Assembly (NCBI GenBank): GCA_041665025.1
Contig: JBAYJP010000001.1
Coordinates: forward strand, 211,996 to 275,995
From: Candidatus Magasanikiibacteriota bacterium
Lineage (GTDB): Bacteria > Patescibacteriota > Patescibacteriia > Magasanikbacterales > UBA922
Direction: 5' to 3'
DNA length: 64,000 bases
Notes under the pieces: generated by a model
What the model was told of the DNA's origin: nothing
The model's database searches: none
Seen by the model: only the letters and a program-made list of their open reading frames with translations
Program-made: the position numbers and the translations under genes
Shown here: piece by piece, positions 4,500-62,846 of the stretch
Layout of the letters: each line of letters starts with the position of its first letter
Position numbering within the stretch: the stretch's first letter is position 1

Positions 4500-4581
4500 G
4501 CAATAAGTATAGCAGAAATATTGACAAAATTCTATAAATATGATATTATTTTGCGAAACTTACGCGCGGAAAGGGGTTGAC

Positions 4582-4812
4582 ATGGAAAAGACCCGCGCCG
4601 AGTTGGAGAGCCTTCTGCCGGAAGATCCGGCAATGGCTCTGCTGGTGCTGGCCGGCCTGATCTTCGCGTTCATGGTCGGCTGGTTGGTATTTCGGCTTCG
4701 CGCTGCGAAGCGTGTGGCCGAGACACTCAACTTCGAGACCGAGCGCCCCGCTCGCATCGCCGCCTTCGAAGAGAAGTCGGCTGAGCAGGATGGGACGCTC
4801 GTCGTCCGCTGA
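4582..4812 (+). CDS. small single-TM hypothetical protein encoded in a high-GC island (about 60% GC, GC3-rich codons)
   Basis: SD GGAAAGGGG followed by ATG. Protein MEKTRAELESLLPEDPAMALLVLAGLIFAFMVGWLVF... Codons are GCC/CTG/GGC/CGC-rich, unlike the host. An antisense ORF (4546..4842, TTG start) is also open, so the coding strand is not certain. Confidence 0.35.
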   Translation: MEKTRAELESLLPEDPAMALLVLAGLIFAFMVGWLVFRLRAAKRVAETLNFETERPARIAAFEEKSAEQDGTLVVR

Positions 4813-4923
4813 GAAAAAGGAGAAGGAAGATGAAACTTCCAAACAGCGGCGGGGTGCGAGTCTACATGCGCCCTAGCCGCTCCCTGCCATGAGATATTGA
4901 AATATCAATGCATCATGATACTA

Positions 4924-4960
4924 AAAAACCGATTCTTTATATAAGATCGGTTTTTTATTT
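4924..4960 (+). terminator. intrinsic terminator (hairpin accgat...atcggt plus T-run), bidirectional
   Basis: aaaaaccgattctttatataagatcggttttttatttt. Confidence 0.4.
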
Positions 4961-17907: not shown

Positions 17908-18005
17908 GTGATAGTTTGTAAAGTTAAAAGTTATAAAGTAAAAAGTTACTAGAGTAAAAAACTAAAACTTTATAACTTGGAACTTTACAACTTTTAACTT
18001 TGGAG

Positions 18006-24858: not shown

Positions 24859-25977
24859 TTACTCCTTCGGCGGAATCGTGTACCCGAGATATATCCAGCT
24901 ATCTTTTTCTGGATGGACGTACAACACCGTTGGTATTTGCTGTGAAGGAAGTTTGCGCGTTTCCCAGGTCTTGCCACCGTCAGCACTGCGATAAAATGTC
25001 GAACGGTTGTCTAGCGTGCCGGTATAATATACTTCTTTATCATTTTTTGGATTAATTGCAAATCCATAGATATCTACACTCCCCGGAGGAGTAACCAAAT
25101 TAATTGCTTCCCACTCTTCTCCGGCATTGCGTGATGTTATCACACCATATTCAGAAATCCAATATATTTGTTCTGCTTTTTGAGGATGTAAATACAATCG
25201 GCGAAATTCAAGCGAACCAGGAAATCCGCTAAATCTATCTTTCAAATTTTCCCAACTAGCACCGCTATCTCTGGTTCGAAAGAGACCAGAATCTCTGGTC
25301 GCTACGTAGAGCAGACCTTCTTTATTATTATCAAATGAGATTTGCTGAAGTTTGTTACCAAAACGATTTGCCACGAGCCAATTTTTGCCCATGTCTTCAC
25401 TCTTGAGCAAATCCCCATTATCCTCAGACATATATATGTGCGTTGTCTTGAACGGATCAAATGCTACAGATGTAATAGCGTCAGACGCCCGAGCCTCACG
25501 AAAAATTTCAGTCCATGACCGCGCACAGTCGTCGGATTTAAATACCTGGCGTCCATTGGTAGCCACAAACGTACATTTATCTTTTGGATGAACAGAAAGA
25601 CTATACAAAAATCCCAAATTAAATGGCTCTACTGAATGCGCCCATGATCTTCCTTCATCAAAACTATAAAAAAGTCCTTGTTCCCGTGATGCCCAATACA
25701 AAGCCTTGTTATCTTGAGGATCGGTAAACAAACGATACACTGAGACGCTCGTAAGCTGTTTGACCCCGTCTACGGCTGGCATTGCTGACAACTGTTTCCA
25801 TGTTTCCCCTTTATCAATACTTAAGAAAAATCCAGCAGGTCCCGATGTCTTTGTTCCACCTGACCCATCAAGAGAAATACAGCTCTGACCCATGGTGACG
25901 ACAGCCATGAGCAACACGCTAAACGTTATGAAATATTTTTTGGTGCGCATATATTGTTTATTAAAATCAAAACTCAA
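24859..25977 (-). CDS. BNR/Asp-box repeat beta-propeller protein (Ycf48-like), secreted or lipoprotein
   Basis: Seven S-x-D-x-G-x-T/S-W Asp-box repeats (SIDKGETW, SFDEGRSW, SDDCARSW, SEDMGKNW, TRDSGASW, SRNAGEEW, SADGGKTW); N-terminal signal with Cys. Confidence 0.6.
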   Translation of the reverse strand: MSFDFNKQYMRTKKYFITFSVLLMAVVTMGQSCISLDGSGGTKTSGPAGFFLSIDKGETWKQLSAMPAVDGVKQLTSVSVYRLFTDPQDNKALYWASREQGLFYSFDEGRSWAHSVEPFNLGFLYSLSVHPKDKCTFVATNGRQVFKSDDCARSWTEIFREARASDAITSVAFDPFKTTHIYMSEDNGDLLKSEDMGKNWLVANRFGNKLQQISFDNNKEGLLYVATRDSGLFRTRDSGASWENLKDRFSGFPGSLEFRRLYLHPQKAEQIYWISEYGVITSRNAGEEWEAINLVTPPGSVDIYGFAINPKNDKEVYYTGTLDNRSTFYRSADGGKTWETRKLPSQQIPTVLYVHPEKDSWIYLGYTIPPKE

Positions 25978-26117
25978 AATTCAAAGTTCAAATCTATATC
26001 TTAAAACTTAAAATTGTAAAAAGATTTTAGTTTTAAGTTCCAATTTTGAATTTTGAGATTTGATTTTTGAATTAATACTCTTAAACTTTTATTAACAAAA
26101 TGGTTAAAATGTGTGAT

Positions 26118-27032
26118 TCACGGCAACTGTAACAAAATATGCTCCGTCAACAACCGTGGATGAATATTTTCTTCCAAATATTTCCGCGCTTTACTAATAT
26201 CATCTGAAACCGAAATAATCGTCTTATCACTCAAATTTGAATTACCCTCACGCGCCATTTGATTCAGTTCAATTTGCCAAATAGACAATACATCTTGCAA
26301 ACGTTCACGCGCTTTTATGTGATCTTCTTTGTCTCCAAATAATTTCTCAACTATGCTCAATTTTTCATAAAACGGCTTTCGGAGCAATCCTTTAAATCGA
26401 TTAATTTCTTGCTTATATATCTCAAAAGATTCAGCATCATTCGCCCATTCCCATGCCTTACCTGGAATGCCCTGGCAATACTCTGTAAGTTCTTGTGCTC
26501 TATCTGGCTCAATAACATTTTTTTCAAGCCATGACGCGATTTTTCTTTGATTTACTAACGAAAAATAAAAAAGCTGGCAACGCGAACGAATAGTCCCAAG
26601 CAATTCTTTTTCATTTTGTGTAATAAGAAAAATAACTGTCTTGCCGCGCGGTTCTTCCAAAGTTTTTAAAAGTGCGTTTGATGCGGCAGTACTCAAAAAT
26701 TCTGCATGGTCAACAATGGCAACACGATATCCACCAGGCAAAAAAGATGTTTGGGATAATTGTGAAATAGCACTGCGTACTTGCTCAATACTAATATCTT
26801 TTTTTAATTTTTCGGTTTTTTCATCTACTATGCGTTCAACTACTATATAGTCAGGATGCATTTGGATTTTGTCGCGTGTAGTTTTGAGAAGCCGAGCAGC
26901 TAACTCTTGGGCCACTGTAAATTTTCCTACGCGCCCTGGACCGCAAAAACAATAGGCGTGGCCTAAATTGCCGTTTTGTATGACATTATCAAAAAAAGAA
27001 AGGATGTTATCATGTCCCACGATGTCGTGCAT
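26118..27032 (-). CDS. holB: DNA polymerase III delta-prime subunit (clamp-loader AAA+)
   Basis: GHAYCFCGPGRVGKFTVAQELA Walker A-like motif; about 300 aa. Confidence 0.8.
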   Translation of the reverse strand: MHDIVGHDNILSFFDNVIQNGNLGHAYCFCGPGRVGKFTVAQELAARLLKTTRDKIQMHPDYIVVERIVDEKTEKLKKDISIEQVRSAISQLSQTSFLPGGYRVAIVDHAEFLSTAASNALLKTLEEPRGKTVIFLITQNEKELLGTIRSRCQLFYFSLVNQRKIASWLEKNVIEPDRAQELTEYCQGIPGKAWEWANDAESFEIYKQEINRFKGLLRKPFYEKLSIVEKLFGDKEDHIKARERLQDVLSIWQIELNQMAREGNSNLSDKTIISVSDDISKARKYLEENIHPRLLTEHILLQLP

Positions 27033-27201
27033 ATATGCTTAGTGTAGCATAATTGGGTTTAAGAGACAAGAAACAAGATACAAATAAAATCTCAATTTCC
27101 AATTTTCAAAATATTCACAGCCAGCCCTTGACGTCTCTCTCTCTCTTTGCTAGGGTTACATATCGCACTTGTCCTGGTGCGATGGAACAAGGAGACAGAG
27201 G

Positions 27202-27420
27202 ATGAAGCGCGAAGTTTCACCGACGGACTTCACAGCAGTGCTTGAGTACGAACCTCAGGAGGCAGCCGAAGCCGAAGCCGAGGCGGCAATGCTCAAGGCT
27301 GAAGGATGGAGGGTTCTCCTCCGTGAACCGACTGTCGACGGCAAAAGGAGACGCGCGGTGTTGGTCCCGGAGTGCACCGAGCTGACCGCGATCCGGTGGT
27401 TCAAAGAGAACAAGCACTAG
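27202..27420 (+). CDS. hypothetical small protein in high-GC island; an antisense ORF (27217..27447) is equally plausible
   Basis: SD AGGAGACAGAGG then ATG; protein MKREVSPTDFTAVLEYEPQEAAEAEAEAAMLKAEGW... The antisense ORF has SD GGAGGUCG then AUG and begins MWVVVGGEKLVLVLF. Confidence 0.3.
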   Translation: MKREVSPTDFTAVLEYEPQEAAEAEAEAAMLKAEGWRVLLREPTVDGKRRRAVLVPECTELTAIRWFKENKH

Positions 27421-27571
27421 CTTCTCACCGCCTACAACAACCCACATCGACCTCCGCTCTCATCTACCTACCACGACACCCTCAGGGCGTCCTTCCTCCA
27501 GCGCCCGCGCATTGGTTATCTCTGCCTTCCAGCGGACATAGTCAGTGAAAATCGCTGGAGAGGAAAAATAA

Positions 27572-27603
27572 AAATCACCCATGAAATTGGGTGATTTTTT
27601 TAT
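27572..27603 (+). terminator. intrinsic terminator
   Basis: aaaaatcaccca-tgaaat-tgggtgatttttttat. Confidence 0.5.
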
Positions 27604-27623
27604 AAAATGTATGGTGGTGATGC

Positions 27624-27751
27624 GATACAACCTACCCTCCATCTCCCTCCCTTACTAGGGAGGGAGAGCCCACTTATATATCTAAATCAAACATTTTAGG
27701 GCGTCCCTCCTCCATTTGTAAGGGAGGAGGAAAGGAGGTAGGTTGCATTAC
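27624..27751. repeat. pair of GC-rich hairpin modules (about 50 bp each, about 80% identical) in inverted orientation
   Basis: Left arm caacctaccctccatctccctcccttactagggagggag matches the reverse complement of right arm gtccctcctccatttgtaagggaggaggaaaggaggtaggttg. Each arm also folds on itself. Confidence 0.45.
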
Positions 27752-27758
27752 AGAATCA

Positions 27759-28898
27759 TTAATCCATCAAAATCTCCAACGTCTCTCTCGCACACTTCTC
27801 CCACGAAAAATCTTTCACTCTTTCTAATCCTCTATTCACATTCTGCATTCTGCATTCTGCATTCTGCATTGCTTCACTAACTCCACGCGCAATATCCTCA
27901 ACACTCATCGGATCCACATACACGCATGCATCTCCCCCAACCTCTTCGAGGCTGTTTCCTTTTGACGCGACCACGGGTGTACCACAGGCCATGGACTCAA
28001 GCACGGGAAGTCCAAAACCTTCATACAAACTAGGAAAAACAAAAACTTCCGCCGCATTCAAAAGGTATGGCAAATCTTGTTCATCTACCCAACCTGGAGT
28101 GACAATGTCATGTTTAAAAACACTATTACTCAGAGTGTGTCTCACCTCTCCATAGCCATATCCTGGTTTACCAACAAGCAACAATTTCAGATTTTCAGTT
28201 TCTGATCCTAAAGTAGTTTTTAATTTATTAAATGCCTGGATGATTCGTGTGGTATTTTTCTTTTCTTCAAGTCTACCAACACTCATAATAAATGGCTTTT
28301 GAATTGAATATTTTTTCAATACCTTTTCAATACCTTTTTCATCTTCAATCTTTTTATATTTCTCATCATACCCATGTTGTACCACAAAAACCTTATCATT
28401 ATTCTGAATTCTCAAATCTGCATTCTGCAATTCTTCTTTTACAAATTTCGAGGGCACAATCACTTTCCACGCTCGTTTTAACGCATACCGCGCCGACCAA
28501 ACAGAATACCACCGCTCAAACCAATTGTACGACTCTGGAAATTTTATTGCGGCAGTATCGTGTATCACGGCTACTGTTTTTTTTGGATGAATCAACGGCA
28601 TGACATGCGCAGGAATAAACAATACATCTGGAGGATTTCTAAACATTTCCCAACTTAATCTGATTTGCGTCCACAATCTCTTTGGCCACCATGCGAGTAC
28701 TTTTTGTGTCCAATTCTCTGGTAACTCCACCAACTCTCCTTGTAAAGGTTTATCCGTATACAATACAAATTCAATTTCCTCCGTGGTCCCTATTCCCTGT
28801 TCCCTATTGTACATTTCTGTAATCACACGAAAGGCGTATTCTTCCACACCTGTTCGTTGCTCACCGTTTGCCCGTGACGCATCAATACCGATGATCAT
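27759..28898 (-). CDS. GT4-family glycosyltransferase
   Basis: C-terminal EGFGLPVLESMACGTPVVAS (the E-x7-E region). Contains an ATTCTGC x4 tandem heptamer near its 3' end. Confidence 0.8.
   Translation of the reverse strand: MIIGIDASRANGEQRTGVEEYAFRVITEMYNREQGIGTTEEIEFVLYTDKPLQGELVELPENWTQKVLAWWPKRLWTQIRLSWEMFRNPPDVLFIPAHVMPLIHPKKTVAVIHDTAAIKFPESYNWFERWYSVWSARYALKRAWKVIVPSKFVKEELQNADLRIQNNDKVFVVQHGYDEKYKKIEDEKGIEKVLKKYSIQKPFIMSVGRLEEKKNTTRIIQAFNKLKTTLGSETENLKLLLVGKPGYGYGEVRHTLSNSVFKHDIVTPGWVDEQDLPYLLNAAEVFVFPSLYEGFGLPVLESMACGTPVVASKGNSLEEVGGDACVYVDPMSVEDIARGVSEAMQNAECRMQNVNRGLERVKDFSWEKCARETLEILMD
27840..27867. repeat. tandem heptamer (ATTCTGC) x4 inside the GT4 coding sequence
   Basis: Direct reading; encodes AECRMQNAECRMQN in the C-terminal tail. 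Confidence 0.8.
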
Positions 28899-29854: not shown

Positions 29855-30110
29855 ACGGTTCCTTTCACCCCGCCACGGCGAGGTCAATTAAGTCCCGACT
29901 AAACCACGTAGAACGTGGCGAACGGTCGGCCCACGAATCACACGTGGTCATGCTCTGTTCTTTACGAAGAACTCGGCTCGACGGCTTTACCCTAAACCAC
30001 AAGGGATTTAGGGTTTACGTCCGGTTGGCGAATATTCCACCTCAAACAAAATTACGGGCTTGTCCGCCGTAGCCTTGGCGGAGGTGGACGCCACCCTGGA
30101 ATGAATTAGA
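29855..30110 (-). promoter_or_regulatory. GC-rich, highly structured 5' leader (about 255 nt) of the DMT transporter gene; candidate riboswitch or cis-regulatory RNA of unknown class
   Basis: A series of perfect local hairpins on the minus strand: CCCUAAA..UUUAGGG, CCACGUAGAACGUGG, CCACGAAUCACACGUGG, GUUCUUCGUAAAGAAC, GGUGGACGCCACC and CCGCC..GGCGG. The leader ends directly at the SD of the transporter. Confidence 0.3.
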
Positions 30111-30181
30111 CATGTACGAAATACGAAAACTACGAAATGTACGAATTTCGAATATTTCGCAGTTTTCGTATTTCGTACATA
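30111..30181. repeat. 71-bp AT-rich palindrome built from TACGAAA-type words
   Basis: gtacgaaatacgaaaactacgaaat is near-reverse-complementary to atttcgcagttttcgtatttcgtac (1 mismatch). A related palindrome lies at 48566-48641. Confidence 0.7.
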
Positions 30182-31188: not shown

Positions 31189-31195
31189 AAATTAT

Positions 31196-31318
31196 TCTAA
31201 TTATTCTAATTAACCTAATTATTCTAAAACAAATCCCAATTTCAAATTACATTAAATGTGTATAAGAAACCTTAAAGTAATTGGTCATTTTTTAGAATAA
31301 TTAGAACAATTAGAGTAA
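31196..31318. repeat. intergenic palindromic array of ATTATTCTAA words flanking the mreB upstream region
   Basis: attattctaattattctaattaacctaattattctaa ... tagaataattagaacaattagagtaattaa. Confidence 0.7.
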
Positions 31319-32812
31319 TTAAAAATGTACATCAAAACTTCTGTCTACCCTTAGATCTGTATTCAATTCATAGATAGAATCTCCCCACTTTTCCTGCGCT
31401 TCACCAGGGTTAGCAGATGTAATAGTTTTACCAAAATCCAGGTCAAGCGTCAATGGTGGCGCAAGTGTTCCTATTTGTTTTTGAATACGTAATGTATACA
31501 AACCTTTTTCAACGAGTTCTTTTATACCATCGGGCAACTGATACATAAATTGTATATTTCCTGTATTTCCCGGTTCAATTGATACAAATACACCAAACCA
31601 TTTTTTGCCAAGTTCTGTTCCCTGATCAACGCTACTCGGTTCAAAAGTTTTTACATTCTTTCCATTGTTTACCATGACAGTCACGAGCTCTGATCCATCG
31701 GGTACAAAAATACGCGTATACGTACGATATCGTGTCGTTCGCCAATCAAATGTTCCCTTATGTACATACGTCATAGATGCAGAAGCCAAATAGCGTTCTA
31801 CCTCTGATTCATGCGCCGGAGGACGCCGCGACAATGAATAATGCAAAGAACGTTCAATAGCATGATCAGTTTTCAATGCTGCCAAATTTGCATCTGCCCA
31901 CAAAAGATAATCTCCCTCTGTATCAGCCATGGTGCCATTCCAGCCTTTTTTATCTACCATTTTTTTCAAAGATTCAGATGAGGAGTACACCACAATATGC
32001 TTTTCAGAAGCAAGTGTATTGACCATAGCCCCATATTCATCTATTCTTTTCCACGCATCATTTTTGAGCCGTGCAAGCAATTCGAGCATAAGTGGCCCCA
32101 TAATTTTTTTTCGTTCCAAAAAGTGAATACCTTTTTCATCATATCCATATTCAACTTCATATTCTAATTTTTCAGTGACGTCGTCTGCAGTAAAGGTAAT
32201 GCCGTCAATCGTAATAGGGCCAACTTTTTTCATGATTTCTTCAAGCACGGTCGTGTCTATACCTACAACGGCGTCAATATCCCCTGATTTAACTCCACCT
32301 TCTCCCGTAAATAATTCAAGGCCTTTTTTTGCGCTCTCTGCAAAATCAGGAAACCAATTACTATCTCTAAAATACCACCGATCAACTTTCAACTGCTCTC
32401 TAAGTATTGCGGGCGGTACCGGGCGCCACGAATCGGGCGTATCTCTGTCAATCCTTTCGGTTCCTTCCATTTTGTCTATCTGCATGTTTCCTTTGTCCAA
32501 AGTAACAACCGCGTATGAACCAATAAACCCGCCGCCAGGCCGCAGTTCGGTATTATTTAAAAATAATAATAAATACGTCTTTGGTTCAGAAAACCCAAGC
32601 AACTCTGGCAATGCTTCAAGCAATTCTGTCCCGCTTTCTCCAAACTGGCGCTCAACTTGCTCCCGTACAAATGGAGATTCAACAATTTGTTCCGGGGTAA
32701 TACTGCTTAACCAATGATACAAAAACCACGCACTGCCTAAAAATAGGATAGCAAAAGCAAGTAATATCCATGGCCACTTTGGCGGTTTTCGTTCAAAGGG
32801 GTTATTAAACAT
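31319..32812 (-). CDS. hypothetical membrane-anchored extracytoplasmic protein (DUF4012-like)
   Basis: Single N-terminal TM helix followed by a large soluble domain; no catalytic motif recognised. Confidence 0.35.
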   Translation of the reverse strand: MFNNPFERKPPKWPWILLAFAILFLGSAWFLYHWLSSITPEQIVESPFVREQVERQFGESGTELLEALPELLGFSEPKTYLLLFLNNTELRPGGGFIGSYAVVTLDKGNMQIDKMEGTERIDRDTPDSWRPVPPAILREQLKVDRWYFRDSNWFPDFAESAKKGLELFTGEGGVKSGDIDAVVGIDTTVLEEIMKKVGPITIDGITFTADDVTEKLEYEVEYGYDEKGIHFLERKKIMGPLMLELLARLKNDAWKRIDEYGAMVNTLASEKHIVVYSSSESLKKMVDKKGWNGTMADTEGDYLLWADANLAALKTDHAIERSLHYSLSRRPPAHESEVERYLASASMTYVHKGTFDWRTTRYRTYTRIFVPDGSELVTVMVNNGKNVKTFEPSSVDQGTELGKKWFGVFVSIEPGNTGNIQFMYQLPDGIKELVEKGLYTLRIQKQIGTLAPPLTLDLDFGKTITSANPGEAQEKWGDSIYELNTDLRVDRSFDVHF

Positions 32813-34324: not shown

Positions 34325-34442
34325 AATTGTAATTTGTAATTTGAAATTTTTAATTTAAAAACAATGACAAATTTTTAATATTTCAATATTTAAAATTGCG
34401 TCATTTCAAATTGTTTAAAAATTGTGAATTGTAAATTTCAAA

Positions 34443-36496: not shown

Positions 36497-36510
36497 GTCG
36501 ATAAGTAAAA

Positions 36511-36538
36511 ACATAACACATAACACATAACACATAAC
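36511..36538. repeat. tandem heptamer (ACATAAC) x4, followed by an inverted GTTATGT/GTTACGT partner at 36571-36597
   Basis: Direct reading. A related ACATAAC/GTTATGT palindromic array lies at 54897-55026. Confidence 0.8.
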
Positions 36539-36597
36539 AATTGCGTAACAAATTCGGTATGTTTGATATGTGTTACGTGTTATGTGATACGTGAAAA

Positions 36598-44436: not shown

Positions 44437-44555
44437 ACAAAAAACCGCTTTTCAGCAGTTCTTTGAAAAAATAGTATGTCCATGGTAAAACTTTATATAT
44501 TGTATAATATACAAAGTTCTCGCCATGGACACCTCCTTGCCAAGCGAGAAAAAGA

Positions 44556-44849
44556 TCAGCGTGCGCTAAAAGAGATCTTTTCGCGTGGGATCCTCTTGCC
44601 CCAAGCCCGGGCACACTCCCGCTCGTGTCTCTCCACACAACCGATCTTGATCAGGTAGGCCAGCACAGAATAGACGTTGCTGTGCCGCACCCTCCAGGTC
44701 GTATCCTCAACGATCCTTACGGCACTCCACTGCTTACCCGGCGTCCCGCTGAGAAGTCTGAAGACCTCATCGCGTGCCGGACGCACAATGAGGTCATAGT
44801 GGAGAAAGACACCAACCAAAACACCGCCGACTATGACCAAAAGCCACAT
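44556..44849 (-). CDS. hypothetical small protein (N-terminal TM helix) in high-GC island, antisense insertion inside the nad operon
   Basis: SD GGAGGT 7 nt upstream of the ATG; MWLLVIVGGVLVGVFL...; GC3-rich codons. Followed by a 60-bp hairpin tgtccatgg...ccatggaca at 44478-44537. Confidence 0.35.
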   Translation of the reverse strand: MWLLVIVGGVLVGVFLHYDLIVRPARDEVFRLLSGTPGKQWSAVRIVEDTTWRVRHSNVYSVLAYLIKIGCVERHERECARAWGKRIPREKISFSAR

Positions 44850-44912
44850 CGCAGTACCTCCGGGGTTGTTGTTTCATTTTTATTCTAACACAAAAAATCA
44901 AAATCTCATAGT

Positions 44913-47462: not shown

Positions 47463-48563
47463 ATGATAATCCTTGGCATCGAAAGTTCATGCGACGATAC
47501 ATCAGTCGCATTACTGGATATAACAGACGACCACATTGAAATCCTTGCGGAAAAAACTGCAAGCCAAATTGATGTACACAAAAAATATGGCGGGGTCGTG
47601 CCAGAGATTGCGGGACGAAAGCATGCGGAAAAAATTGTACCATTGGTTGAACATATTCTTGAAGAAGCTAGGGTTACTAAACCTGATGTAATTGCAGTTA
47701 CGTCTGGTCCGGGTTTAATAACGGGACTTGTGGTGGGAGTTGAAACAGCCAAGACGCTTTCTTATTTATGGGATGTACCTATTGTAGGTGTGAATCATAT
47801 TGAGGGACATATACATAGTGTAAAAATTCCAAATACCAAGATACAAGATACAAATAAATTTCCAATTTCCAATTTCAAATTTCCAGTACTTAGTCTCATT
47901 GCATCAGGAGGCCACACAGAACTTATCCTTTCTAAAAAACAAGGAGAATATGAACGAATAGGAAGTACAGTAGATGATGCTGCTGGAGAATGTTTTGACA
48001 AAGTAGCAAAACTGCTTGGGTTTGATTATCCTGGTGGACCAAAAATTTCAAAATTTGCTGAAACAGGAAACCCCCATGCCATAGAATTTCCTCGACCAAT
48101 GATACATTCAAAAGACTTCAACTTTAGTTTTGCCGGACTCAAAACCGCAGCACTCTATTGGCTGCGAGATAATCAATTATCTGCTTCTCACACACTATCT
48201 TACGAACTTCCAGCCGGAATATTCGGACAAACACCAGAACAACCCACGATCAACGACTTTTGTTCAAGTTTCGAACAAGCTATCATTGATGTCCTGGTTA
48301 CTAAAACCCTCAACGCAGCAAAAAAATACAAACCAAAAACTGTTATTTTAGGTGGTGGAGTTTCTGCAAACAAAAAATTACGTGAGACATTACAAAAAAG
48401 CATTGAAGAAAATTTTCCGGCTTCTAGTTTCTTTCTTCCCTTACCCAAGTATGCCATGGACAATGCGGCCATGATAGCTGTTGCGGCATACCATCATGTA
48501 AAAAAGAAAGAATTTACGTTGTGGCAAAAATTACAAGCAAATCCAAATTGGAAAATATATTAA
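47463..48563 (+). CDS. tsaD: tRNA N6-adenosine threonylcarbamoyltransferase
   Basis: MIILGIESSCDDTSVALL, GVNHIEGH and SGGHTEL motifs. Contains AATTTCC-type heptamer repeats at 47838-47884. Confidence 0.9.
   Translation: MIILGIESSCDDTSVALLDITDDHIEILAEKTASQIDVHKKYGGVVPEIAGRKHAEKIVPLVEHILEEARVTKPDVIAVTSGPGLITGLVVGVETAKTLSYLWDVPIVGVNHIEGHIHSVKIPNTKIQDTNKFPISNFKFPVLSLIASGGHTELILSKKQGEYERIGSTVDDAAGECFDKVAKLLGFDYPGGPKISKFAETGNPHAIEFPRPMIHSKDFNFSFAGLKTAALYWLRDNQLSASHTLSYELPAGIFGQTPEQPTINDFCSSFEQAIIDVLVTKTLNAAKKYKPKTVILGGGVSANKKLRETLQKSIEENFPASSFFLPLPKYAMDNAAMIAVAAYHHVKKKEFTLWQKLQANPNWKIY
47838..47884. repeat. tandem heptamers (CAAGATA x2, then AATTTCC/AATTTCA x4) inside tsaD
   Basis: Direct reading; encodes KIQDTNKFPISNFKFP in a loop between the GVNHIEGH and SGGHTEL motifs. 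Confidence 0.85.
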
Positions 48564-48565
48564 TG

Positions 48566-48641
48566 TACGAAATGCGAAAACTGCGAAAGGTACGAAAAAA
48601 TATATTTCGAATATTTCGTAGTTTTCGGATTTCGTACATAA
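48566..48641. repeat. AT-rich palindrome of TACGAAA-type words, related to 30111-30181
   Basis: gtacgaaatgcgaaaactgcgaaa is near-reverse-complementary to tttcgtagttttcggatttcgtac. Confidence 0.7.
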
Positions 48642-48650
48642 TTACCATGT

Positions 48651-49589: not shown

Positions 49590-49695
49590 TAATTTTTAAT
49601 TTACAATTTACAATTTGAAAACAATTCACAATTTCTAAATTTTTTAATTTAAAATTGTTTGTAAATTGTAAATTTCAAATTGAAAATTTATTTAT

Positions 49696-54896: not shown

Positions 54897-55026
54897 ATTC
54901 AACGTGCAATTTTACTACTAGAAATCACATAGCACATAACACGTAACATAAAAACAAAAAAATCTTTAACACGTTTTTGTTATGTGTTATGTGTTATGTG
55001 TTATGTGCTATGTGTTACGTGAACAC
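54897..55026. repeat. palindromic array of ACATAAC / GTTATGT heptamer words
   Basis: cacatagcacataacacgtaacat...gttatgtgttatgtgttatgtgctatgtgttacgtg. Confidence 0.7.
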
Positions 55027-62738: not shown

Positions 62739-62846
62739 CTCAAAAATCAAAACGCAAAGCTCAAAATTGCAACTCAAAAAATCGAAAATTTGTTGGTTTT
62801 GAGCTTTAACTTTGACTTTTGAAATTTGAGTTTTGAATTTTTCAAT

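Follow-up and report, generated by a model that had tools for sequence, protein, structure and literature searches.

Between the glycosyltransferase (GT) gene and holB of a Candidatus Magasanikbacteria metagenome-assembled genome lies a block of DNA with a GC content of 57%, set in a stretch of 64,000 nucleotides (nt) that averages 39.5% (hereafter the window, to whose positions all coordinates without a prefix refer), and in this block open reading frames (ORFs) lie opposite each other on both strands. Is the block a gene and, if so, on which strand; is it a copy of some repeated element; and how did it come to separate its two neighbors? A 120-nt sliding window finds three non-tRNA high-GC blocks in the stretch, of 340 to 420 bp and 56 to 59% GC (4541-4900, 27161-27580, and 44521-44860), which we call islands 1 to 3; the block in question, island 2, occupies the 726-bp gap between the stop codon of the GT4-type GT gene (27759-28898) and the ATG of holB (26118-27032). 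Both neighbors are encoded on the minus strand, and identical copies of their products are found on ENA contig ERZ27249449:k141_705746 and on an NCBI contig with WCW16_ locus tags. Our answer, to which we assign a probability of about 0.62, is that island 2 is a self-contained, moron-like accessory gene cassette of foreign composition, acquired horizontally and standing beside a palindrome resembling a REPIN (a doublet of repetitive extragenic palindromic [REP] units that can form a hairpin). The GC-rich block and the two opposed ORFs reported in the initial annotation are indeed present (Table 1).

The plus-strand ORF, which encodes a protein of 72 amino acids (aa), has both the composition and the signals of a gene. 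Its GC content at the first, second, and third codon positions is 0.64, 0.44, and 0.70; the last of these values (GC3) compares with 0.337 ± 0.041 (maximum, 0.444) in 55 native genes and corresponds to a z score of 8.9. It is preceded by a Shine-Dalgarno (SD) sequence at regular distance (Table 1), and single-sequence AlphaFold2 (AF2) prediction of its charged product yields a beta-beta-alpha-beta-beta-alpha fold, predicted to be a soluble alpha/beta protein, with a predicted local distance difference test score (pLDDT) of 81.9 and a predicted template modeling score (pTM) of 0.60. Moreover, it is this ORF, and not the one on the minus strand, that the NCBI pipeline annotates (WCW16_01240). 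Signals, periodicity, chance expectation, structure prediction, and annotation thus agree in favoring the plus strand as the coding strand, a choice that had at first been left ambiguous.

The minus-strand ORF is a compositional by-product of the plus-strand ORF. Its codon-position GC values (0.70/0.44/0.64) are those of the plus frame mirrored, and when the codons of the plus ORF were shuffled, the open stretch on the opposite strand averaged 65 codons; 61% of these shuffles gave at least the 67 codons actually observed, which makes a shadow ORF of such length the expected outcome. The same is seen with the shadow ORFs of GC-rich genes in general, in which a codon usage poor in TTA, CTA, and TCA leaves a long mirror frame open on the opposite strand; we found no difference from that pattern, which fully accounts for the minus ORF. 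That the minus ORF might nonetheless be a real gene, of the same family as the gene of island 3, or that both strands might be coding, is in our view very improbable. Its ATG does have a GGAGG ahead of it, and both ORFs had been credited with good SD sequences, a judgment that stands for the plus ORF (AAGGAGA, 7 nt). The minus-strand GGAGG, however, lies just 3 nt before the start codon, a promoter scan found no minus-strand promoter between 27450 and 27570, and the ORF sits immediately downstream of a terminator that would stop incoming transcripts. Its product, too, is predicted with a pLDDT of just 43.5 and a pTM of 0.25. Its N terminus (MWVVVGG) resembles that of the island 3 protein (MWLLVIVGG), and the two start regions had been taken for clearly homologous, but the letters that they share come down to GGAGGT and ATGTGG. 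Hand-picked 91-nt windows around the two starts align with a score of 21, compared with 13.8 ± 2.3 for shuffled sequences (20 of 2,000 reach it; P of ~0.01), whereas over the whole islands there is no DNA signal (21 versus 19.0 ± 2.1), and BLASTP of the minus-strand protein against the island 3 protein gives an E value of 4.9, with the N termini left unaligned. Finally, the opposed ORFs do not resemble a type I toxin-antitoxin system, in which a small hydrophobic toxin is paired with an antisense RNA that has its own promoter: the product is charged and predicted to be soluble, and the scan gave no minus-strand promoter.

On the plus strand, the predicted elements follow one another in the order expected of a complete transcription unit: a candidate promoter, a hairpin in the 5' untranslated region (UTR), the SD sequence, the 72-aa ORF, a C-rich 3' UTR, and a terminator (Table 1). 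The last of these, already recognized in the initial annotation, passes a terminator scan and has the GC-containing stem-loop followed by a T run that defines rho-independent terminators, with T runs on both sides; it is predicted to end the cassette transcript on the plus strand and the incoming GT transcript on the minus strand alike. A longer ancestral ORF, or read-through past the TAG stop codon, was considered and rejected. The frame does stay open, but codon periodicity is lost there (0.56/0.50/0.60) and the other frames are no less open, so that the segment after the stop is a C-rich 3' UTR and not lost coding sequence.

Stable RNAs are GC rich in AT-rich genomes, and island 2 might accordingly be read as a gene for a structured noncoding RNA, with the ORFs on both strands incidental. 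The GC-rich block does span roughly the region from the predicted transcription start to the terminator, its GC content is similar to that of the tRNA cluster in the window (54%), the whole transcript folds with a z score of -2.9, and the 72-aa protein has no homologue. We nevertheless consider this unlikely, given the clear three-base periodicity, with GC at second codon positions well below that at first and third positions (as it is in islands 1 and 3 and in the islet of a relative described below), the confident single-sequence AF2 fold of the plus ORF, and the properly spaced SD sequence. A z score of -2.9 is, moreover, modest for 471 nt, and Rfam gave no match, either at gathering thresholds or at E values of up to 10.

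What the locus looks like without the island can be seen in related genomes. The gene order MreB-EamA-GT-holB-BNR-RRF-Dtd is kept across the class, although even the nearest HolB in the database is just 54% identical to that of the window. In three of the relatives (loci L004, L087, and L088), the gap between GT and holB measures 29, 23, and 22 bp, respectively, and is empty; the island-free state of the junction, normally about 25 bp, is accordingly that of two nearly touching genes. In L089, the gap of 196 bp is filled by a long TAGGTTT-type hairpin. In L003 (identical to L002; assembly GCA_003482855.1), it extends to 993 bp and holds a different island: a block of about 60% GC with an ORF for a 194-aa orphan protein that is unrelated to the 72-aa protein and matches no family. 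This islet has a promoter matching the consensus at 11 of 12 positions (TTGACA-17 nt-TATATT) and, beside the GT stop codon, a terminator-like hairpin with T runs that was read from the sequence (the terminator scan reported none in the region); two GC-rich hairpins (L003:3876-3940) lie between its promoter and that of holB. Existing gene calls place two wrong-strand ORFs (91 and 140 aa) where we read the 194-aa ORF.

The DNA directly upstream of holB seems to be native. About 60 nt can be aligned between the window and L003, and the 24-mer ATTATGCTACACTAAGCATATATG (27033-27056), which ends in the holB start codon, is identical in L003 (L003:3977-4003) despite the 54% identity of the HolB proteins; a related version is found in L004 (L004:3975-4003). 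This 24-mer, which contains the palindrome TATGCT...AGCATA, may represent a promoter or operator or else a signal for a near-leaderless start. Since holB retains this conserved upstream element, its expression need not depend on read-through from GT.

As the contig stems from a metagenome assembly, chimeric high-GC reads in a MEGAHIT contig might be suspected as the source of island 2. HolB is found on one contig of 5 to 10 kb and two of about 283 kb and GT on three long contigs, and another assembly might break nearby. Such an artifact is hardly credible, however: promoter-like site, SD sequence, ORF, and terminator give the GC-rich DNA a functional frame, the native gene order resumes on either side, and the 64 kb contain three units of this sort. 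The ORF of island 1 is found on a Logan contig as well, and the L003 island is base-for-base identical in the NCBI and Logan assemblies, which agree over 8.9 kb of that locus, further arguing against an artifact.

How the cassette entered may be reflected in a degenerate direct repeat. The DNA adjoining the holB upstream region resembles the GT 3' end: the two copies share the exact 11-mer ACGTCTCTCTC and a 12-mer matching at 10 of 12 positions, and the left copy, translated in the GT frame, reads RET-SRAGC-EYFEN where the live gene has RET-L-EILMD followed by its stop codon. Their alignment score of 25 compares with 17.6 ± 3.0 in dinucleotide shuffles (25 of 1,000 reach it) and is matched by 2 of 629 genomic controls with the same spacing. 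The repeat is suggestive of a relic of a target duplication of ~35 to 50 bp, made at an insertion that would have enclosed the cassette together with the hairpin module described below. According to this scenario, the cassette would have entered the GT-holB junction, duplicating the GT 3' end. Its predicted transcription, on the plus strand, converges with that of its neighbors.

Island 2 might, alternatively, be an old native gene whose composition is held by selection (on mRNA structure or stability, for example), without any recent foreign insertion. Such a history would fit the divergence, including insertions and deletions, of the flanking duplicate, the match between the GC-rich block and the transcript, and the lack of a detectable donor. 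It is improbable in the light of the 22 to 29 bp found at this site in three relatives, a GC3 lying 8.9 standard deviations above that of native genes, and the absence of a homologue from any other Magasanikbacteria protein set.

Several observations also weigh against an acquired cassette as we describe it. The candidate promoter (TTGACG-17 nt-TAGGGT) was read by eye; its -10 hexamer matches the consensus at just three of six positions, which is why the promoter scan, at its threshold, missed it, and the promoters of island 1 and of the L003 island, with 11 of 12 positions matched, are stronger. The direct repeat is only moderately significant (P of about 0.003 to 0.025, chosen post hoc), and no equivalent flanking repeat was found at island 1, island 3, or the L003 island, so we discarded flanking repeats as a general signature of such islets. 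No donor or homologue having been found, it is the composition and the empty site in relatives that argue for a horizontal origin, and with the closest available relative at 54% HolB identity, neither the time nor the boundaries of the insertion can be fixed. The near-exact coincidence of the GC-rich block with the predicted transcript could point to a constraint at the RNA level. Lastly, the hairpin doublet beside the cassette may have arrived with it, as a 17-nt fragment shared between the two suggests, or may be native, as suggested by the class of palindromes to which we assign it below. On balance, we still favor a horizontally acquired cassette.

Searches for relatives of the 72-aa protein returned, among 5.8e9 proteins, nothing but the protein itself. 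Two HMMER matches with E values near 1e-5 among 1.84e9 representatives (P0122 and P0123) proved to be long repetitive proteins aligned through a short low-complexity stretch, and we do not regard them as relatives. Pfam, PHROGs, NCBIfam, PADLOC, and the sequences in PDB gave no match; Foldseek found nothing significant for the predicted fold in PDB or BFVD; and the island DNA matched no plasmid or phage. Nor was the protein found in JGI metagenome contigs or IMG/VR contigs, the former of which also lacked an exact match to the holB flank. Viral contigs held no match for the island proteins, and the proteins of island 3 and the L003 island gave none against phages by tblastn. A collection of genome contigs yielded no match when searched with HolB alone; searched with a HolB alignment, it was swamped by the universal NALLKTLE motif and returned just one Magasanikbacteria locus. 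As a guess, we take the 72-aa protein for a small soluble product that stems from a mobile element and has an accessory, conflict, or immunity-type role, as is typical of morons.

Downstream of the terminator, and beginning 9 nt past the GT stop codon, lies the second component of the locus, a doublet of inverted hairpin units. Each unit of about 48 nt consists of ATRCAACCTACC and the CTCCCTCCC hairpin, and unit B, in the GT 3' UTR, is an inverted copy of unit A. Here the initial annotation was correct: unit A and the reverse complement of unit B align with a local score of 33, compared with 14.0 ± 2.5 in dinucleotide shuffles (none of 1,000 reach it). The inverted-repeat arms (27625-27666 and 27707-27748) allow the 125-nt double hairpin (27625-27750) to fold at -68.5 kcal/mol on the plus strand and -70.9 kcal/mol on the minus strand (z scores of -6.5 and -7.3; none of 200 shuffles folds as well), and since each unit is itself a perfect hairpin, the fold is branched. 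Apart from its high GC content and its branching, the module is peculiar in that a 17-nt fragment of the unit, AGGGCGTCCYTCCTCCA, recurs at 27484-27500 within the GC-rich block, in the cassette 3' UTR (score of 29 versus 15.3 ± 2.2 in shuffles; 0 of 1,000 reach it). Further copies of the module had been anticipated, but besides this fragment the window contains none.

Is the doublet part of the GC-rich island, as had been proposed? The module is missing from islands 1 and 3, and other gaps are occupied by palindromes that are built alike but unrelated to it. According to an inverted-repeat scan of the whole window, most intergenic gaps of 60 to 200 bp consist almost throughout of a single hairpin, in whose arms degenerate 6- to 9-nt tandem units are strung together and then followed by the complementary string. 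Two families at least are dispersed through the window, with TACGAAA-type hairpins at 30100 and 48555 (86% identical) and ACATAAC-type hairpins at 36500 and 54915 (80% identical). Similarly, L004 has a palindrome in the gap between holB and BNR and a CCCTCCCC/GGGGAGGG hairpin in the native gap between BNR and RRF. These gap palindromes look like a system of REP-like elements or miniature inverted-repeat transposable elements, or else a terminator-like system, typical of these Magasanikbacteria; we know of no description of a gap-filling palindrome system of this kind. Because the doublet lies between the GT stop codon and the terminator (ending 24 nt short of the latter), is similar in size to the other gap palindromes, and has arms that read as C-rich short units, we would rather count it among the gene-boundary palindromes of this genome, whose form recalls REPs or REPINs, than read it as a mark of GC-rich islands. 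Its most likely role would be in RNA 3'-end stability or in insulating convergent transcription in the GT 3' UTR. We also considered homology of the module to the hairpins of L089 or L003, but no convincing alignment was obtained.

REPINs are doublets of inverted REP units with a spacer between them (PMC3116915), and units A and B are two inverted palindromic units with a spacer. As in REPINs and bacterial interspersed mosaic elements (PMC3116915, PMC3337134), the doublet is extragenic, lies just past a stop codon, and can fold into one large hairpin. It differs in that REPINs are defined by high copy number whereas 64 kb contain one doublet and a 17-nt fragment, and in that the unit is 48 nt long and itself a perfect 11-bp hairpin; no gene for a REP-associated tyrosine transposase (RAYT) was noticed, in a window that was not screened systematically for one. 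The cassette as a whole can be compared with integron cassettes: an imperfect palindrome of ~125 nt comes after an ORF, and its ends approximate RYYYAAC...GTTRRRY. These are the sequences of the R" (RYYYAAC) and R' (GTTRRRY) boxes of attC sites. The module, in contrast, lacks the R/L box architecture, having a continuous outer stem of ~16 bp with one bulged C and two perfect hairpins as its interior; the cassette appears to have a promoter and a terminator of its own; and a single module is present, with no array in the window and no integrase noticed nearby, again without a systematic screen. An attC reading of the module thus fails on its folded architecture, near as its end motifs come to the consensus.

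One could go further and regard cassette and doublet together as a mobile unit of integron-cassette or REPIN type, in which the doublet would be the recombination site (attC-like or recognized by a RAYT) and the other GC-rich orphans would owe their arrival to the same machinery. Besides the order of ORF and palindrome and the inverted doublet with spacer that defines a REPIN (PMC3116915), this would agree with the length of the module, which falls within the attC size range, and with its ends (ATACAAC...GTTGCAT), each matching the attC consensus at six of seven positions. The unit stands between the 8-mers GGTTACAT (27153) and GGTTGCAT (27741), a partial third copy of the hairpin unit lies inside the cassette 3' UTR, the direct repeat flanks cassette and module together, and this site received an insertion in a second lineage as well. 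We find it doubtful all the same. No unpaired central spacer separates R and L boxes, the outer stem being continuous; the 8-mer bracket is not statistically meaningful; and we noticed neither an integrase nor a RAYT in a window that was not screened systematically for them. The 64 kb contain no other copies of the module, islands 1 and 3 are without one, the L003 hairpins lie on the promoter side, and nine viral-contig matches to the outer-stem pattern turned out to be unrelated CAACCTACC iteron arrays, in a number expected by chance.

Acquisition of a single accessory gene thus remains our preferred account, and the other islands of the window lend it a context. Island 1 lies between divergent native genes and encodes a membrane protein that matches no family; its promoter (TTGACA-17 nt-TATTAT, with a TG element) matches at 11 of 12 positions. 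Island 3 contains an ORF with a promoter-like site and a terminator (Table 1); as the exact protein is absent from a collection of 15 billion proteins, it was probably never called. An all-against-all BLASTP comparison of the three island proteins, the minus-strand ORF product, and the L003 island protein revealed no similarity. The initial annotation had seen in island 2 a small repeated genetic element rather than a drift in composition: a discrete unit of foreign composition it is, but with no significant similarity between the islands in DNA or protein, it is not a repeated element. A further islet of the island 2 kind may be present in a different class of Candidate Phyla Radiation bacteria: in a Candidatus Uhrbacteria locus of 45% GC, a 256-aa ORF (L008:1281-2051; codon-position GC of 0.54/0.43/0.66) lies antisense to and directly upstream of holB.

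The known elements that island 2 most resembles are morons, reportedly described in temperate phage genomes by Hendrix and colleagues. Morons are recognized as extra genes between genes that are adjacent elsewhere, with their own transcription signals and a deviating GC content, and hot spots may take up different morons (PMC2920897). In the same way, island 2 places one extra gene between genes that are adjacent in relatives, has a promoter-like site (weak and read by eye), a terminator of its own, and a deviating GC content, and shares its position, the GT-holB junction, with an unrelated GC-rich gene in a second lineage. Since it is set in a chromosomal housekeeping operon (MreB-EamA-GT-holB-RRF) and not in a phage, with no match to PHROGs or phage DNA, and since its gene has no other known occurrence, island 2 behaves as a moron would but is not one in the strict sense; single-gene horizontally acquired orphan islet would be a neutral label. 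Among the genes in horizontally acquired regions of Patescibacteria, 61.6% have no assigned function (PMC12455944), and island 2, being short, atypical in composition, lineage specific, and without an assignable function, fits that picture. It differs from the genomic islands described there in size, the islets being single-gene and far smaller, and in being GC rich, with a GC3 of 0.67 to 0.78 compared with a genome average of 0.34.

Two observations concern the neighboring genes. Pfam PF20706 (GT4 in conflict systems) is a further match for the GT (E value of 7.5e-14), weaker than its matches to the general GT1/GT4 families; the conserved housekeeping synteny of the GT gene argues against a role in defense. 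Upstream of the gene for the EamA-family transporter is a GC-rich structured leader (29856-30053, minus strand, with structure extending to about 30100; gap fold z score of -8.9), which has a subthreshold match to the flavin mononucleotide (FMN) riboswitch (25.6 bits, compared with a gathering threshold of 66.2; E value of 5.8e-4) and the motifs of which, GGAATATTCGCCAACCGGA, GTGTGATTCGTGGGCCGACCGT, and AGTCGGGA, are kept in L003 (L003:690-850). In all probability, the leader is an FMN riboswitch of divergent sequence that controls a riboflavin transporter.

Table 1. Features of island 2, of its surroundings, and of the loci compared with it (positions without a prefix refer to the window)
Feature	Position	Strand	Remarks
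Island 2, high-GC block	27161-27580		57% GC
Native holB upstream region, promoter-like	27033-27092	-	Left limit of possible inserted DNA
Direct repeat, left copy (degenerate)	27087-27141		Resembles GT 3' end; local alignment to 27753-27789
Candidate sigma-70-type promoter, TTGACG-17 nt-TAGGGT	27128-27156	+	Read by eye from sequence
5' UTR hairpin, ATCGCAC...GTGCGAT	27162-27183	+	In both minimum free energy and centroid folds of transcript
Shine-Dalgarno sequence, AAGGAGA	27189-27195	+	7 nt from GGAG to ATG; read from sequence
Gene for 72-aa orphan protein, NCBI WCW16_01240	27202-27420	+	Composition, signals, predicted fold
Antisense shadow ORF, not a gene	27217-27447	-	Mirror frame of plus ORF
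C-rich, G-poor 3' UTR	27421-27569	+	38% C, 18% G; carries 17-nt hairpin-unit fragment (27484-27500) and stem-loop
3' UTR stem-loop	27516-27571	+	Inverted-repeat scan
Bidirectional intrinsic terminator, AAAAATCACCCA-6 nt-TGGGTGATTTTT	27570-27601	Both	12-bp stem (27570-27599), loop of 6, T runs on both strands
Hairpin unit A	27624-27671	+	Tail ATACAACCTACC, then 11-bp perfect hairpin CTCCCTCCC-TTAC-TAGGGAGGGAG
Hairpin unit B	27699-27749	-	Inverted copy of unit A; in GT 3' UTR
Direct repeat, right copy	27753-27789		Functional GT 3' end (...ARETLEILMD, stop 27759-27761)
Island 1 islet	4521-4960		59% GC; GC3 0.78; z = 10.8
Island 1 gene, NCBI WCW16_01105	4582-4812		76-aa single-pass membrane protein
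Island 1 terminator	4922-4957
Island 3 islet	44438-44909		56% GC; GC3 0.67; z = 8.2
Island 3 ORF, 97 aa	44556-44849	-	N-terminal membrane helix, then weak winged-helix-like region (PadR/TrmB, E about 0.05-0.09)
Island 3 promoter-like site	44909-44882	-
Island 3 terminator	44465-44438	-
Gap palindromes	17920-18001, 25964-26073, 30112-30180, 31195-31324, 34327-34441
Gap palindromes, continued	36511-36592, 48558-48644, 49591-49688, 54926-55014, 62743-62820
L003 islet (= L002)	L003:3008-3845		Contig DMXO01000005.1 of GCA_003482855.1; ~60% GC block at GT/holB junction
L003 islet ORF, 194-aa orphan	L003:3165-3749	Antisense to GT and holB	Codon-position GC 0.60/0.42/0.77
L089 hairpin in GT/holB gap	L089:2318-2470
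L004 gap hairpin	L004:4898-4983

In outline, the mechanism proposed for island 2 is an ordinary one, that of an acquired accessory gene, with its shadow ORF, beside a palindromic repeat, and the feature itself is real. What lifts the locus above routine is the presence of three unameliorated GC-rich one-gene islets in 64 kb, each with a GC3 lying 8 to 11 standard deviations above that of native genes, with expression signals of its own, and without neighbors of foreign composition; the recurrence at this junction, in a distant lineage, of an islet unrelated to island 2; and the pervasive gap palindromes. We speculate that the gene-boundary palindromes of Magasanikbacteria might be entry points for promoter-bearing foreign orphan genes, either through their fragility or through recombination at the folded single strand, and thereby constitute a lineage-specific route of single-gene acquisition. 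While we hold this to be unlikely, it would explain the three unrelated islets in 64 kb, the two unrelated islets at the GT-holB junction of organisms with 54% HolB identity, and the hairpins beside islets together with the hairpin-unit fragment in the island 2 3' UTR.

Gene calls in ENA and Logan overlooked the true ORF in island 2 or placed wrong-strand ORFs in the L003 island, so GC-rich islets in AT-rich genomes call for strand-aware inspection. Bacteria of the Candidate Phyla Radiation have tiny, streamlined genomes, and the routes by which they gain genes are poorly understood. If islets of this kind are frequent, their composition would offer a simple marker of genes recently gained by these bacteria, and the islets would also be a source of orphan small proteins that are candidates for roles in host-symbiont or phage conflict.

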